In this document: piece after piece, positions 43,057 through 49,887 of the stretch
Numbering within the stretch: position 1 is the first letter of the stretch
Layout of the letters: every line of letters starts with the position of its first letter
Assembly: GCA_963728405.1 (NCBI GenBank)
Contig: CAVSJV010000004.1
Location: 128,001-192,000 of the forward strand
DNA: 64,000 nucleotides
DNA from: Methanomassiliicoccaceae archaeon
GTDB taxonomy: Archaea; Thermoplasmatota; Thermoplasmata; Methanomassiliicoccales; Methanomassiliicoccaceae
Direction of reading: 5' to 3'
Notes under the pieces: generated by a model
Databases searched by the model: none
What the model was told of the DNA's origin: nothing
The model's input: only the letters and a program-made list of their open reading frames with translations
Position numbers and translations under genes: made by a program

Positions 43057-43495
43057 TCACTGAGGGGCGTGGCCTTGCTCCATAGAGGCAATTATTTGCT
43101 TTAATGTCGCCACCAACCCATCGAACTCATCCATGCCGATCGGCTTGATGAGGAAGTGATCGACCGAGAGCTCCATCGCCCGGGTCCGGTCGAGGGGGTG
43201 CTGGGAACCGGCAAGGATAACGACCTTCAGGGCATCTTTCGAGCACGAGCTCCTGATGAACTTGAGGACCTCCAGGCCGTCCCGCTTGGGGAGCTTCAGG
43301 TCGAGCACCACGAGCATCGGTGTGAAGGACATGTCCTTCAGCCGGTCCTGTATGATTTCGATTGCTCTCTCGCCATCCCCAGCGACCTTAACTCGGACGT
43401 CGCATTCCAGTTTCTGCGATGATCTCCTGGGTCAGAGCGGCATCGGCCGGATTATCCTCCACCAGGATCATTTCCACGATCGGCAGATCAATCAC
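43057..43495 (-). CDS. Receiver protein, frameshifted ~43402
   Basis: LVEDNPADA / [24 protein letters not shown]. Confidence 0.8.
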
Positions 43496-45148
43496 TCCCC
43501 CCCTTCGGCAGAGTGAACAGGAAGTTCGCTCCCTTTCCTTCCACCGATTCGACCCAGAATCCGACCCCCCTGCTGCTCGACGATCTTCTTGCAGATGGCC
43601 AGCCCAATGCCCGTTCCGGGGAACTCGTCCACCGTATGCAGACGTTGGAACACCTCGAAGATCCTCTCGGAATACTTTGGATTTCAATCCCGATGCCGTT
43701 GTCCCGAACGCTGAAGACCCACTCCTTGCCTTCTTCCCGGACCGAGATATCAACGCGAGGCGGCTGGGACCCATGGAACTTTATGGCGTTGCCGATGAGG
43801 TTCTGCAGGAGCTGGACCATCTGGCGCCGGTCGGCCATTACTAGTGGTGAGGTACCCGAAGACGATCATCGCCTTGTTCTCGTCAATGGAAGCTTTGAGG
43901 ACTAGTTTTACTTCATTTACCAATTGGCCCATATCCAGCGGGGCGAGCCTGGTCCCTCGGCTGTTGACCCTCGAGTATTCCAGGAGACCATTGATCAACT
44001 CCCTCATCCGGTCGGAGCCTTGTATGGCGAAGCCTATGTACTCTTTGGCTTTCGGGTCGAGCTGGCCACCACACCTCTTCTCCAGTAGACCTAGGTAGGC
44101 GGAGACCATTCTCAAGGGCTCCTGCAGGTCATGCGACGCAACGTAGGCGAACTGTTGCAGCTCGGCGTTCGAACGCGTCAGCTCCTTGGCGTTCTGAACT
44201 AGTTCCTTCTCCGCCTCTTTGATGGAGGTTATGTCCTGCAGGACCATCACGCCACCGAGCACCCGCCACTGCGGGTCGATGATCGGCGCCGAAGAGACCG
44301 TAAGGGTGATGCTGACCCCTCCGGGCTGCACCAGGTCGATGATGTCTCCGATGATGGTCTTGCCCAGGGCGATGGTCCGATGAAGGGGCCAATCTTCCCT
44401 CAGTAGGGGATCCCCGGTCTGATGGTCCCACGCTGGTACTTTCTCCAGCTTCGCGGGCTGGAACAACTGTGGAGCTCTTACCCGAACAACATCAAACGGG
44501 CCATCAGATTGGTCTCGGTCACCCGCGCCTCCTGATCCGCCAGGACCACACCTACGGGCAGCGAGTCCAATATGGTCGAGAAAAGGAGATGCTCTTGGTC
44601 AGTGCTCTTCTTGACCCGAGAGAAACTGACCTCCAGGTCCCGGTTCCGTTCCCATACCGACCGATACATCATTGCCAGGGAGAGTATGCCGGCGAACCCT
44701 TCCAGGGTCCTCAGTTCATGTTCCAAAGGTTCTTCGGCCCTGGGCTTCAGCAACCCCAGGATCCCGTTCTTCTGACCTCTGCTCCGAACCTGGACCAGCA
44801 CTTACCTCAGCCCTCCGTCCCCTTCCTCCAAGTGGCCGGCATGGGAGGGTTCCTTCACAAAAAGGTGGCAGATCTCTTCGAGCCGTCGATGGCTTCCGAC
44901 ATAGCTTCCCGGAGGTATCTGACCACATATTCCCCCTCCTCGATGGGCGCGAGGAAAACGGCACTCCCAGCCAGCTCGTCGATTATGCTTTCCAGGACCG
45001 AAGAAATGACTTGTTCAGGGCCGTCGGCATTAGAGAGACCTGTGGCCATCCGTATGCAGCCCTTATGCTGATGATATCGGCCATCCCCACCGGACGGAGC
45101 GTCAGAAATTCTCAACAATCCCCCATCTTTGTCTTCCACCGGCCCCAT
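43488..45148 (-). pseudogene. GAF-PAS-HisKA-HATPase sensor kinase, multiply disrupted
   Basis: [56 protein letters not shown] spread over several frames with in-frame stops. Confidence 0.85.
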
Positions 45149-45370: not shown

Positions 45371-47072
45371 TCAGTCCATCCTTTTTGGCCGCTGAAACTC
45401 CATGACGAACGATGCGGGGTCATCGATCTCCCACATATCCACACCGGCCAGCTCGAACCGCCGTTTGTGAGCCCTCTCCCTTTCTGGCCTCAGCACCTTT
45501 CTCCCGACATCACCAGCAACGGTCAAGAACGGCCTGATGCCTCCGCGGACCGTCAACGATATTCTTCTGGTCTCCACACCGACAAACTCCTCCAGGAGGC
45601 CGCACAAGGCATCTATGAAGCGACCTTCATCGACTAGGACCAGTTCTCCTTCGTCCGTCCCTTGGACATCGAAGGTCATTTCATCATAGACGGGGAGATG
45701 GGCGATCCGCCTGGCAAGCGCGGCCAGATAGGCCTGATCATCTCCCAAGGCATCAAATATCTCATCCTCGGAAGGCGGTGCCGATGCCAGGGTCTCTATC
45801 GTCCGATCCACCAGCCCGTCGAGCCGGCTGGGCACCAACTCGATGGAGAACTCCAAGCCCTTTATAGCATTGGTAAAATCTCCAAGGAGACGGGAGGTCC
45901 GTCGGAGAATTGAGGCATCCATTAGCTCTTCGAGTTGGGTGCCGGAGAACAGACGTTCGATCGACTGGATGGTCTGGATCGCTTTGAGGACGACCTGAAT
46001 CTGGACCTTATGACCTCCCCTGAACTCCTCGACGAATCGGTGGAAGCTTGCCAGAAGTTCATCGATCCGGTCGACCTGTACACATTCCATGCACCGACGA
46101 GCCTCTTCGGACTCCTCCAGCTCTTCCAGGAAGAAGGAGAGATAGTATAGTCGGCCGGCCAGAATGGAGAACGCTTCGTTCGCCTCCAATAGGATGTCCA
46201 GAGCATAGTCTGAGGTGAAACGCACACGGTCCATGTCGTAAGTGTGTATCGAACCCAGTTCGCCAACCCTCTGCAACATGCCCTCCAGTATCGCCTGGGC
46301 CGTAGTATCTGTCGACCGGTCGACCGTGACCGGGGCAGCATATTTCGATGTCCCTGGTCCTGAGCAGCCAGAGGACGTTCTTGATCGAAGTGACGAGATG
46401 ATCGCGGTTCCAGCCCACCTGACCCGCTATCCCGGGGTCTGCAGCGAACAGCAGGTCACCAGTGAAAAGAAGGCCTCCAACTAGATAGCAGACGCTGTCC
46501 GGACTGTGACCAGGGGTGTGGAATACCTCCATCGTTCCGCCGTTCAGCGGGATCACCTGCCGTTCCACGGTCAGACCGCCCTCTGTCGCGATCACTTCCA
46601 TCTTCGTACCCAACGACACCTCCCCGGTGAGGTCGCTCTCTCCTTCGGGCAACAGAGGAGAGTAATGGACCTCCAAGAACGAAGGCGGAAAGGTCCATCC
46701 CATGATCCGGGCCTGGGTGAGGTCAGCATCGAGGCTTTTCAGTGCGTTGGCCCCCACCTGCTGGACGACGAGCCTTACCGGCCCCTGTCCGCTCTCTCGG
46801 TAGGCAGAAGCTATCTGGAAAGAATGGTCCACATGGCAATGGGTCAGGTAGAAGGTCGTTTCCAAGCCCATCGCCGACCCTTCCCGCACCAACTGAAGGA
46901 TGCGGGCCATTTGGTCAGCGTCTGCGCCTGGATCGATTATTACTTGGTCTGATCGAGTGCGGAGGACATAGGCATTGCAGGACATGATGTCCGGTTTCCT
47001 GATAAAAGGAAAGATCTCACCCGCTTCGAGACCGGTGATCGGCTGCCACTTGGCATTGTCCAGGCTTGCCAT
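45371..47072 (-). CDS. MBL-fold metallohydrolase fused to a degenerate histidine-kinase-like C-terminal region; frameshift ~46305
   Basis: IIDPG, THCHVDH, HTPGHSPDS, LFTGD, CPGHG; continues in 45371..46279 frame. Confidence 0.8.
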
Positions 47073-47075
47073 GGA

Positions 47076-47405
47076 TCAGCCCGCCAATGCTTCCTGCTCT
47101 GTCCCGTAGATATTGAAGATGCTCGTGAAACCGGCCAGCTTGAACACCTTGAGCACGCCGGGCGAGAGGCAACAAAGCTTGAGGGACCCGCCATCCTTAC
47201 GCAGTTCCTTCAACGTGCCCAGGAAGACCCTTAACCCCCCGCTGCTGATGTAATCGGTATCCTTTAGATTGATCAGTATATTGCGGTGACCTTCGCCGAT
47301 AGCCTTCTTGAGACAGTCCTCCAGGGTCTTGGCCGAGTAGGCGTCAATCCGGCCTACGGTGTTAACTAATCTTGTCCCATTGCTCATGCTTTCATTGATA
47401 TCCAA
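47076..47405 (-). CDS. STAS anti-anti-sigma-factor-like protein (RsbV/SpoIIAA)
   Basis: GRIDAYSA, DYISSGGLRVFL, VFKLAGF; SD GAGGTGA before TTG 47405. Confidence 0.93.
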   Translation of the reverse strand: MDINESMSNGTRLVNTVGRIDAYSAKTLEDCLKKAIGEGHRNILINLKDTDYISSGGLRVFLGTLKELRKDGGSLKLCCLSPGVLKVFKLAGFTSIFNIYGTEQEALAG

Positions 47406-47406
47406 T

Positions 47407-47856
47407 TCAGTCACCTCTAATCTCTGGCTTCTCAGGGCCACCCTGGCCATGGGTGCTCATGATCAATGTGAGCACATTCTTTCCTTCCTCGCGCCGGTAG
47501 CGGACCTCATCCACTAGGTTCATCATAAGATGAACGCCCAGGCCGCCCACTTCCCGGTCCTTCGATTCAGCCTCCAGGTCCGGCGGGGGCACGCTTCGCG
47601 GGTCGAACGGCCGCCCCTCATCCACCATGGTCAAATAGATCAGGCCAGGCTCGATATTGACACTCACCCCGACCGTGCCTCTGCGCTCGTAGGCGTGCTT
47701 GAGGATATTGGTGAAGGCTTCCTCTGCCGCTACCAGGAGGTCCGTCTTCGTTTCCTCATTCATGAAGGAGCCCATGACCGAACCCTCGACAAATTCAAGG
47801 AACTCAGCGAGCCGGCTGAGGTCGGCCTCGAAGCAGTCTTGGCTAAAAGAGCTCAA
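47407..47856 (-). CDS. RsbW/SpoIIAB-like Ser/Thr kinase
   Basis: EEAFTNILKHAY, DEGRPFDP, GGLGVHLM..LVDEV.Y. Confidence 0.93.
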   Translation of the reverse strand: MSSFSQDCFEADLSRLAEFLEFVEGSVMGSFMNEETKTDLLVAAEEAFTNILKHAYERRGTVGVSVNIEPGLIYLTMVDEGRPFDPRSVPPPDLEAESKDREVGGLGVHLMMNLVDEVRYRREEGKNVLTLIMSTHGQGGPEKPEIRGD

Positions 47857-49223
47857 GGGCTGACCCCCACCTTGAGCGCCATGAGGGTGATGTCGTCATA
47901 TTGGGCGGCCCCTTTGGCAAAGTCGAGGACGTCCTCTTTTATTCCCTCCACGATGCCCTGGGCCGGTGAGGTCGAGAGCCTGGCCAGCGCAGCCCTGAGC
48001 CTATCCTCGCCGTACAGCTCCCCGGACGGATCGTTGGCCTCGGTGACGCCATCGGTGTAGAATAGTATGATGTCCCCGGCGCTCAGTGAGAGAGCCTTTT
48101 CTTCCGAGACAGCATCGTCCGTCGCCCCCAGGGCGATCCCTTCTCCCTCCAACTCAGTGAACGCCTCCTTCCTCAGAAGCAGAGGAGGGTTGTGTCCGGC
48201 ATTGGCATAGGTGAAGCGGCCGCTGGAGTGGTCGAGGATCGCATAGAACAGGGTAACGAACATGCCCGATTCCGAGGTCTCGGCGATAAGGCGGTTGGCA
48301 TCGGCCACCGCTCGAGCGGGACCGGAGGCCTGGGAGGAGGTCGCCCGGAGCACAGTGCGGGACAGGGCCATGTAGATCGCGCCAGGAACCCCTTTTCCTG
48401 GACGTCGGCGATGACCAGGCCAGACCGCCCGTCCCCCAGGTCTATGAAGTCATAGAAGTCCCCACCGACCTCCTTGGCCGGAACATTGAGAGCAAAGAGA
48501 TCGAACCCGTCGACGGATGGCCCCTTCTTCGGCAGGAAGCTCTGCTGGATGCCCTTAGCGATCTCCAGCTCGAACTTCTCCTTCTCCAGAGTATCGTGGA
48601 AGCGGTCACGCTCCTCCTTGGTGGAGCGCTCCATGATGAGGTTGTTGATTATGTACGCGAAGATGAGCATACCTATGGCATTGACCATGATCATGGGCGG
48701 TCCGACCCGCTCCACTACTGCCGCCGCGTATGGATAGGGACTTACGATCATCAAGGTCAGACCCATGTGGAGGGCTTCCTGCAATGTAGCAAAGGCTACG
48801 GCCACCAGGACGCCTGCGAACTTCTTACCGGCCAGGTACCAGATTAGGCTGCCGAACAGTCCAGACAGCATTGTGGCCAGGGAACAGGACACCGTGGTCT
48901 CTCCACCCACGAAGATGAGACGATGAAGGCCCCCCATCAGGCCTGCGCCGATACCGACCACAGGGCCGCCGACCAGCCCGCCGATCATCGGGCCGAGGTC
49001 CCGGACAGTTGACCTTGACCCCCAGCATGTCGATGCCTGCGTAGGTGCCGAATATCGAGAGAAGGCCGAAGGCTACCAGCAGGAACGCCTGGTTCTTCCA
49101 ATAGAGCTTACCCTCGAGAGCATCGTTGAACAACCTGGTCCGGGTTATCACATAGGCCACCACGATGACCACGCACATTATCTCGGTCAACGAGATCAGC
49201 AGATCGATAGTTATCGTGTCCAT
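47853..49223 (-). CDS. LytS/YhcK 5TM sensor fused to PP2C (RsbU/SpoIIE) phosphatase; frameshifts ~49007 and ~48400
   Basis: GLVGGPVVG..GGLHR; ELEIAKGIQQSFLP, EVGGDFYD, IADV(S)GKG, NAGHNPP, YTDGVTEA, DDITL. Confidence 0.9.
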
Positions 49224-49254
49224 GTGGTCCAGCTCCAGGATGTATGGCGTAGGT

Positions 49255-49887
49255 TCAAGTGGGGAGCCCGTCGTGCTCCTTCTTGGCGGTGCGTTCCTTA
49301 CTCGATCTCTTGATGATGTATGCGAAAACGAACATGCCCACCGAGTTGAACACGATCATAGAGGGACCGACGCTCTCGACCACCGAAACAGCATAAGAGA
49401 ATGGCTGGGCGATCAGTAGGATCAGGGCCATGTGGAAAACTTCTTGCAGCGCCGCAAAGGCCACCGCCACCGGAATGCCAATGAACCTCTTCCCAGCAAG
49501 ATACCAGATGACGCCGCCGAAGAGACCGGCCAATACGGTCGCCAATGAACAGGAGACGGTCGTATCTCCACCCACGAAGAGGAGCCTGTGCAGCCCTCCT
49601 ATCAAACCCGCCCCGATGCCCGCCACCGGGCCGCCCACCAGGCCAGCGATCATCGGGCCCAGGTCGCGAAAATTGATCTTGGCGTCCATGGCATCGACGC
49701 TTGCGTAAGTGCCAAGAATCGAAACGAGGCCGAAGGTGAGGATCAGGAATGCCTGGCTTTTCCAGTTCAGCTTGCCTTCCAGGGCGTCGTTGAACAACTT
49801 GGTTCGGGTGACCAGATATGCTACCACAATAATGGCCAGGACGACTACAGTAAGCGATATCAGTAGATTGATAATATTATTGTCCAT
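49255..49887 (-). CDS. Stand-alone LytS/YhcK 5TM receptor domain, paralog of the downstream sensor
   Basis: Colinear with the N-terminal ~195 aa of the next gene; stops after the last TM. Confidence 0.85.
   Translation of the reverse strand: MDNNIINLLISLTVVVLAIIVVAYLVTRTKLFNDALEGKLNWKSQAFLILTFGLVSILGTYASVDAMDAKINFRDLGPMIAGLVGGPVAGIGAGLIGGLHRLLFVGGDTTVSCSLATVLAGLFGGVIWYLAGKRFIGIPVAVAFAALQEVFHMALILLIAQPFSYAVSVVESVGPSMIVFNSVGMFVFAYIIKRSSKERTAKKEHDGLPT

Follow-up and report, generated by a model that had tools for sequence, protein, structure and literature searches.

Partner switching is the textbook means by which bacteria control sigma factors. In the classical topology of the RsbW/RsbV and SpoIIAB/SpoIIAA pairs, the kinase holds the sigma factor and so serves as an anti-sigma factor. 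Archaea, to our knowledge, lack sigma factors. The subject here is a five-gene operon from a Methanomassiliicoccaceae archaeon (assembly GCA_963728405.1, designated G000 below), found on the minus strand at positions 45371-49887 of a 64,000-nt stretch of contig CAVSJV010000004.1; this whole stretch is referred to as the window. The operon encodes two LytS-type membrane modules, one of them fused to a PP2C/SpoIIE-type phosphatase, an RsbW-like kinase, a STAS protein, and a metallo-beta-lactamase (MBL) domain joined to a histidine-kinase-like module. The reading preferred here, with a probability of about 0.55, is that it is a complete partner-switching-type serine-phosphorylation module in a methanogen, and that its target is an enzyme, the MBL-pseudokinase hydrolase, rather than a sigma factor.

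A described system with an enzyme as output is SiaABCD of Pseudomonas aeruginosa, which consists of a PP2C phosphatase (SiaA), a kinase (SiaB), a switch protein (SiaC), and a diguanylate cyclase (SiaD). The unphosphorylated switch protein is reported to bind and activate the cyclase (PMC8457831; 10.1101/674879). The likeness to the mechanism proposed here is one of logic only: a membrane-linked PP2C phosphatase and a kinase set the phosphorylation of a small protein, whose unphosphorylated form binds a co-encoded enzyme. The outputs themselves are unrelated in sequence, an MBL hydrolase with a dead kinase module here and a GGDEF cyclase there (Pfam finds no GGDEF domain in any of the five genes), and the switch protein here is a canonical STAS protein with a serine acceptor, in an archaeal host. 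From archaea, phosphatase, antagonist, and kinase genes near nonribosomal peptide synthetase genes are mentioned in part of the Methanobrevibacter ruminantium genome description (PMC2812497), and an archaeal two-component census, in the portion of it drawn on here, mentions REC-PP2C fusions only (PMC5847659). In open-access full texts and bioRxiv, neither an archaeal partner switch with an assigned target nor an MBL-kinase-like fusion linked to STAS was found described. The parts of the switch are known ones; the host domain, the proposed output, and the predicted docking module are new. If the preferred reading is right, the MBL-pseudokinase would supply the missing output of archaeal partner switches.

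Compared with RsbUVW and SpoIIE-AA-AB, the operon has the same kinds of parts (a PP2C/SpoIIE phosphatase, a STAS protein with a serine loop, and a small GHKL kinase) in an equally tight arrangement. It differs from them in its input domain, a LytS-type five-transmembrane module; in its conserved fourth partner, an enzyme fusion in a genome in which no sigma factor was found; and in the predicted contact with the target, for which STAS rather than the kinase is responsible. The lack of sigma factors, which an earlier note on this DNA had put forward from the sequence alone, agrees with the genome as a whole: the assembly, of 2.73 Mb in 18 contigs and with a completeness of 93.75%, contains mcrA as well as three TBP genes and gave 0 matches to sigma-70 region 2 (PF04542) at E <= 0.01, in a search that matched 10 of 14 control genomes.

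The five genes, as delimited from open reading frames (ORFs) and domain calls, form one tight array, and the gaps between them, read off the DNA in gene order, are 31, -4, 1, and 3 nt; both the coordinates and the gaps of the earlier note were thus reproduced. The 1-nt gap between the kinase and STAS genes requires a TTG start for the latter at 47405, where the orthologues start too. The first gene (49255-49887) encodes a stand-alone 5TMR-LYT (LytS-type) five-helix membrane module of 210 aa (PF07694, E 1.5e-42). With the N-terminal half of the phosphatase of G001, a genome of the same genus, it shares 64% identity; a gene of this type is present in the operon of G027, another relative, and missing from those of G001 and G015. 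The second gene (47853-49223, ~457 aa) encodes a further 5TMR-LYT sensor fused to a PP2C/SpoIIE-type serine phosphatase (PF07694 plus PF07228). In this assembly it lies in three ORF pieces, discussed below; PF07228 scores 144.9 bits on the last of these and 166.4 bits on the intact G001 orthologue, the GGDFYD, YTDG, and DDIT motifs are present, and intact orthologues are 457-481 aa long.

The phosphatase stop codon is overlapped by 4 nt by the TTG start of the third gene (47407-47856), which encodes an RsbW/SpoIIAB-like GHKL serine kinase of 149 aa. This protein scores 86.9 bits on PF13581 (cut-off 27.4), has an N-box and a GGLG box that align with those of SpoIIAB and RsbW, and finds its best solved relatives in SpoIIAB (1th8_A, E 2.9e-8) and RsbW (6m36_A, E 4.8e-8). 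Its score on the RsbW equivalog model falls under the cut-off (49.8 vs 145 bits), so on these profile scores it is a member of the RsbW/SpoIIAB kinase family but not an RsbW orthologue. The fourth gene (47076-47405) encodes a single-domain STAS protein of 109 aa, counted from the TTG (PF01740, 76 bits); a STAS orthologue scores 80.4 bits on TIGR00377, where the cut-off is 53.45. Within its YISSGG loop, Ser54 and Ser55 are invariant across 31 sequences, and Ser55 aligns without gaps with the serine after Asp in SpoIIAA and RsbV, which we take to be the phospho-acceptor in both; the residue at this position in the trapped SpoIIAA of 1tid_B is Ala.

The fifth gene (45371-47072, ~566 codons) combines an N-terminal MBL domain (~residues 1-270; 46262-47072; PF00753) with a C-terminal histidine-kinase-like DHp plus CA (Bergerat-fold) module of ~296 aa (45371-46261), for which there is no Pfam match. 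The earlier note had called the product an MBL-hydrolase fusion; the MBL part of that description stands, and the partner to which it is joined is more precisely a histidine-kinase-like module. The catalytic motifs and the YISSGG region, which it had described as intact, are present in the sequence.

Elsewhere in the genome there is little from which a second switch could be assembled. One STAS protein was found with the window STAS as query, SpoIIE phosphatase gave one match, and HATPase_c_2 gave one strong match (86.8 bits), the other 13 being weak (<=33 bits) and inside frames of 269-1248 aa; the operon is the only partner-switch module found in this genome. Searches for non-coding elements added nothing to this picture: at gathering thresholds, Rfam has no match in the operon and only two tRNAs in the whole window, and the results of scans for sigma-70-type promoters (4 sites, 1.7 expected) and intrinsic terminators (6 sites, 4.0 expected), which are not meaningful for an archaeon, were not used.

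Intact orthologues of the fusion protein are 542-565 aa long, in a family of ~570 aa proteins whose hosts are Methanomassiliicoccales, Methanomicrobiales, and Methanothrix among the archaea, and Syntrophales, Omnitrophota, and other anaerobic bacteria. The MBL domain is over the PF00753 cut-off and has an HxHxDH-type motif followed by later His, Asp, and His ligands; all of these (H78, H80, D82, H83, H187, D204, and H247) are invariant in 53 sequences. The core fold and the invariant ligands are like those of the small glyoxalase-II-like MBLs (Staphylococcus aureus GloB, 7l0b; BLEG-1, 7ev5; TTHA1623, 2zwr); the match to GloB has Z 20.7, with an rmsd (root-mean-square deviation) of 2.6 A over 198 aligned residues. 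Unlike those proteins, the domain scores far under the cut-off of the glyoxalase II family TIGR03413 (30.4 vs 200.8 bits), carries an insertion of ~45 residues, and is followed by the C-terminal pseudokinase. The insertion is poorly predicted, with residues 141-154 at a pLDDT (predicted local distance difference test) value <50.

Attempts to name a substrate gave no usable candidate. NCBIfam returned sub-threshold matches only (SolJ, GloB, class B lactamases, and SoxH-like), and Foldseek with VIA-align returned generic small MBLs tied within ~2 Z. A possible link to Anti-Pycsar Apyc1, a cyclic-nucleotide phosphodiesterase, is a lead only: the name is carried by 13-91% of members in the nearest named protein-atlas clusters, and there is no corresponding Pfam match on the fusion at E <= 0.1.

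The C-terminal module has 201 cluster representatives at E <= 0.001, and among the 150 matches listed it is usually found at ~270-565 of proteins of ~570 aa. The structural model is confidently predicted (pLDDT 88.1 for the whole fusion, 89.6 for the module modelled by itself). Its last 155 residues match CA domains (ThkA 3a0t, Z 14.2, rmsd 2.7 A, 126 aligned), and the module as a whole matches the DHp-CA portion of HK853 (Z 13.8, 199 aligned; Foldseek E 3.7e-6 to 4jav_A). The fold is thus like the transmitter core of sensor histidine kinases (HK853, ThkA, PrrB), and the degenerate DivL and RetS are also among the matches. The differences from those kinases lie in the conserved His and Asn, which are missing, in the G1 and G2 glycine boxes, neither of which is seen in the alignment of the module, in an extra helical pair of ~35 residues, and in the position behind an MBL domain. 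Since no His or Asn is conserved at >=50% in residues 270-565 of the 53 sequences, and neither HisKA nor HATPase_c matches the fusion at E <= 0.1, the module is, as judged from its sequence, a catalytically dead histidine-kinase core. Two of its features recur below: a conserved acidic loop (LEELEESEE) at the end of the first long helix, with L313, L316, and the invariant E318, and the helix pair inserted in the CA domain at around 430-456, which includes the conserved L450.

Both features lie in the predicted interface with STAS. The complex was modelled with the G001 proteins, the fusion with its 53-sequence alignment and STAS with its 31-sequence alignment. It scored 0.69 (individual runs 0.41, 0.70, and 0.69), as against 0.00 for the best of three controls. 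The earlier note had suggested a complex prediction of kinase, STAS, and MBL as a check; this one, of STAS with the fusion, came out in favor of a contact. A score of 0.69 is reached by 116 of 157 solved complexes and by 2 of 215 mismatched pairs, an approximate calibration given that custom alignments were used. The three runs have at least 97% of their contacts in common, with a partner pLDDT of 88 or above. On the STAS side, the predicted interface comprises residues 21-22, 53-56, 58-59, 62-66, and 87-96, which take in the phospho-serine loop together with the helices that follow. On the fusion side it comprises residues 312-318 and 430-456, which belong to the acidic loop and to the inserted helix pair, rather than to the degenerate nucleotide pocket. 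The helix pair bears most of the predicted STAS contacts, and those of Ser55 are to L313, L316, E318, Y446, L447, and L450. Of the 296 positions in the module, the 14 that are most conserved include four in the interface (hypergeometric P 0.0066), and the predicted docking surface on this side is specific to the fusion family.

The distribution of the genes points the same way. Within the order, the fusion is found in 4 of 41 genomes (G000, G001, G015, and G027), in identical gene order, and the PP2C, kinase, STAS, and MBL-fusion core is intact in the last three; STAS is found in 11 of the 41, including all four with the fusion. For other lineages, one genome per species was scanned for the fusion, giving 80 loci, from which 33 (L061, L062, and L064-L094) were dropped as MBL-only matches or matches of <270 residues. 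Around the 47 kept, 35 archaeal and 12 bacterial, the flanking DNA was searched, out to 7 kb at most, using profiles made from the proteins of the operon itself. A STAS gene is in the flank at 29 of the 35 archaeal loci; the remaining six are five on short or end-cut contigs and L018. The RsbW-like kinase gene is in the flank at 21 of the 35 and PP2C, by profile, at 14; in a neighbor clustering of 50 loci, a PP2C gene cluster was present in 22. STAS is on the same strand and <=75 nt from the fusion gene in 15 of the 47 loci. Of the genomes with STAS alone beside the fusion, five of Methanoculleus and Methanolinea types were checked, and each has a SpoIIE phosphatase gene at some other place. 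Because of these neighbor counts and the remote SpoIIE genes, the conserved core is taken to be the STAS-fusion pair, whose kinase and phosphatase may be either adjacent or remote. The clustering turned up no other conserved neighbor that might serve as output, only the STAS and LytS-PP2C clusters being common to more than 6 of the 50 loci.

The earlier note had named the co-encoded hydrolase as the most plausible output of the switch and had made this depend on co-conservation of the MBL gene with the module. That co-conservation is seen in the three relatives and at the archaeal loci, and together with the predicted STAS-fusion complex it gives the proposal computational support. As a mechanism, the LytS-type membrane domain of the phosphatase would sense an envelope or membrane signal. 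Going by family membership and intact motifs, the RsbW-like kinase would phosphorylate STAS on Ser55 and the phosphatase would remove the phosphate. Unphosphorylated STAS is predicted, with the controls described, to dock onto the dead kinase module by means of its phospho-serine loop and the next two helices; the docking site is a patch, invariant and both acidic and hydrophobic, to which L313, L316, E318, and L450 contribute. A phosphate on Ser55, beside the invariant Glu318, should break this contact, and occupancy of the pseudokinase by STAS would then switch the attached di-metal hydrolase up or down.

Several points weigh against a module of this kind with the hydrolase as its output. 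One of the three complex runs reached only 0.41, and the score is a confidence that the model assigns to its own prediction. Since there are solved STAS-GHKL complexes (1th8, 1tid, 6m36), the model may in part be reproducing a known pose on the STAS side. The structural matches of the MBL domain are generic, with class B lactamases within ~1-2 Z of GloB, and single out no substrate. The genomic link between STAS and the fusion is not universal for the family: STAS is in the flank at one of the 12 bacterial loci, and none was found at the other 11, although a SpoIIAA-like ORF lies downstream of the fusion at one further bacterial locus. At the Syntrophales locus L053, a PF11964 gene is situated 318 nt downstream of the fusion gene. 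Sensor kinases, too, have a ligand or metal domain at the N-terminus with DHp-CA behind it, so the MBL domain could be an input. Finally, the stretch from 43 to 50 kb of the window has at least seven frame breaks in 7 kb, which is above the genome-wide rate.

The frame breaks raise the question, noted from the outset, of whether this copy of the operon is alive. The phosphatase gene is in three ORF pieces (48825-49223, 48173-48988, and 47853-48371). Alignment with the G001 and G015 orthologues by MAFFT accounts for the breaks in the operon by exactly three single-base indels: in the phosphatase gene, an extra base near 49007 (gene offset 216) and a missing base near 48400 (offset 823), within the ADVSGKG motif; and in the MBL gene, an extra base near 46309 (offset 763), at the C-terminal edge of the MBL domain, which leaves the gene in two frames. 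The same alignments show no further out-of-frame gap in either gene, protein identity to G001 stays at 68-74% on either side of each break, and the orthologues in G001, G015, and G027 are intact. Six other genes in the window are frameshifted relative to G001, among them those for a flavodiiron-type protein, a class III aminotransferase, and QueC; examples of frame breaks in the window lie near 2384, 3250, 7605, 10200, 27440, 62495, 63545, and 63862. In a genome-wide sample of 231 orthologue pairs (259 kb), 42 genes (~18%) are frameshifted relative to G001, with 54 frame changes or ~1 per 4.8 kb, and the broken genes include those for PolD DP2, topoisomerase I, and enolase. Because breaks are this common throughout the genome, in essential genes as well, and because the orthologues are intact, those in the operon are most probably assembly errors; pseudogene calls in this genome require read-level support.

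Next to the operon, between it and the ThrRS gene, a gene for a PAS-HisKA-HATPase_c histidine kinase and then a receiver gene lie at 43057-45148 on the minus strand, in at least five ORF pieces. This pair is missing at the syntenic place in G001, where the ThrRS gene directly adjoins the MBL-fusion gene, and the stretch may have been inserted as accessory DNA and be poor in consensus quality, or it may be a true pseudogene.

The alternative that survives best, though it is judged unlikely, is that the frameshifts are real and this copy is a decaying relic, dead here while the family works elsewhere. It would account for three single-base indels within 4.5 kb and for the broken histidine kinase and receiver genes alongside, which together exceed the rate of ~1 per 4.8 kb, and the operon was not found in 8 of 10 same-genus genomes searched, which suggests that it is dispensable. 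The operon's own three breaks, however, compare with 0.94 expected, a difference within chance (P ~0.07, Poisson estimate), and the 18% of sampled genes broken in the same way include essential ones. Even identity across the breakpoints and the lack of other out-of-frame gaps in the two genes also speak against decay, and accessory regions with low read depth would be expected to gather more consensus errors. The possibility of real frameshifts, which the earlier note had listed as fatal to its proposal, therefore did not hold up as something particular to the operon.

A distinctly improbable alternative is that the wiring is canonical: the RsbW-like kinase would hold the MBL-pseudokinase, and unphosphorylated STAS would free the fusion by taking the kinase. 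This is how RsbW/RsbV and SpoIIAB/SpoIIAA are arranged, the solved structures nearest to the kinase are those of anti-sigma kinases, and an RsbW-like gene accompanies the fusion at 21 of the 35 archaeal loci. STAS, however, is linked to the fusion more often and more tightly than the kinase is (29 vs 21 of 35), and at eight loci there is a STAS gene but no kinase gene within 7 kb, with STAS at 46-273 nt in four of them and at 3.2-5.5 kb in the other four. The STAS-fusion prediction, which stood clear of its controls and places the phospho-serine within the contact surface, likewise speaks against this wiring.

About as improbable is a scheme in which the fusion is the input, its di-metal MBL domain sensing metal, oxygen, redox state, or a metabolite and sequestering or releasing STAS by way of the dead kinase module, with the output elsewhere: the sensor-kinase layout, the existence of MBL-fold di-iron sensor proteins in the ODP family (within the G001 orthologue set of the window, PF19583 was also matched, by a different gene), and the bacterial fusion genes that mostly have no adjacent STAS would all suit it, but the clustered loci offer no conserved candidate output gene, the single STAS, stand-alone kinase, and PP2C found in the genome leave no other obvious partner, and the metal ligands, all of them invariant, are of catalytic type, though compatible with a sensor as well.

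The preferred reading, a serine-phosphorylation switch acting on the MBL-pseudokinase, provides a specific, testable target together with a residue-level predicted interface and a predicted phospho-site, and cultured carriers exist, going by source names (Methanomassiliicoccus luminyensis and Methanofollis liminatans). A wider version is offered more tentatively, at somewhat less than even odds: that methanogens of the Methanomassiliicoccales, Methanomicrobiales, and Methanotrichales run a bacterial-type serine-phosphorylation switch that controls a di-metal hydrolase post-translationally and is read by a new kind of STAS receptor, a dead histidine-kinase core with an inserted docking helix pair. 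If true, the state of the membrane would act on metabolism along a path that leaves out transcription. Should the hydrolase degrade a signaling nucleotide or a thiol-cofactor ester, it would be the first defined signal-to-enzyme pathway of its type in Archaea. The reuse of a histidine-kinase core as a protein-docking module would also bear on the origin of pseudokinases in prokaryotes.

Some further features were seen around the fusion and STAS genes of other genomes. A symporter gene of the Na/sulfate type (DASS) is directly upstream of the fusion in 6 of 50 loci, all of Methanoculleus or Methanolinea types (L015:5299-6807, L034:5271-6809, and four more), and a gene for a pyridoxal phosphate-dependent enzyme is downstream of it in Methanolinea types. 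At the Syntrophales locus L053, the neighbors encode an MBL-rhodanese protein and a sulfur-transport protein. Taken together, these neighbors hint weakly at a connection with sulfur metabolism. Methanoregula-type loci have, at a distance of 2-3 kb upstream of the paired STAS and MBL-fusion genes, a second gene for a protein of ~435 aa that joins STAS to C-terminal ~320 residues of unknown family (L027:3390-4694, L030:4776-6083, L042:4420-5724, and L055:3753-5057); its product may be another branch of the same switch. Within the order, four genomes of genus g3, in the same family (G012, G016, G018, and G020), have a stand-alone STAS ORF of 110-123 aa and no fusion that could be found with the C-terminal query, and STAS proteins in this order may have other partners too.

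The host is a Methanomassiliicoccus-like methanogen, and the nearest named relative of the fusion protein is in Methanomassiliicoccus luminyensis. The window carries an archaeal-type ThrRS gene and sulfopyruvate decarboxylase (coenzyme M) genes, all recognized by eye from the translations, and a HcyBio gene. On either side of the operon it is syntenic with G001, in the order ThrRS, operon, GNAT acetyltransferase. The GC content of the operon (0.574-0.577) is inside the range of the window (0.515-0.614), and composition gave no anomaly by which to argue for recent horizontal transfer. Because of this synteny, the archaeal genes, and the normal GC content, the contig is here neither bacterial nor chimeric, a possibility that the earlier note had left standing against its proposal. 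Also in this genome, a short TBP-like fragment covering 38 of 85 profile positions was seen in a 53-codon frame with one internal TAG (G000:C18:52989-53102), and may be a gene remnant.

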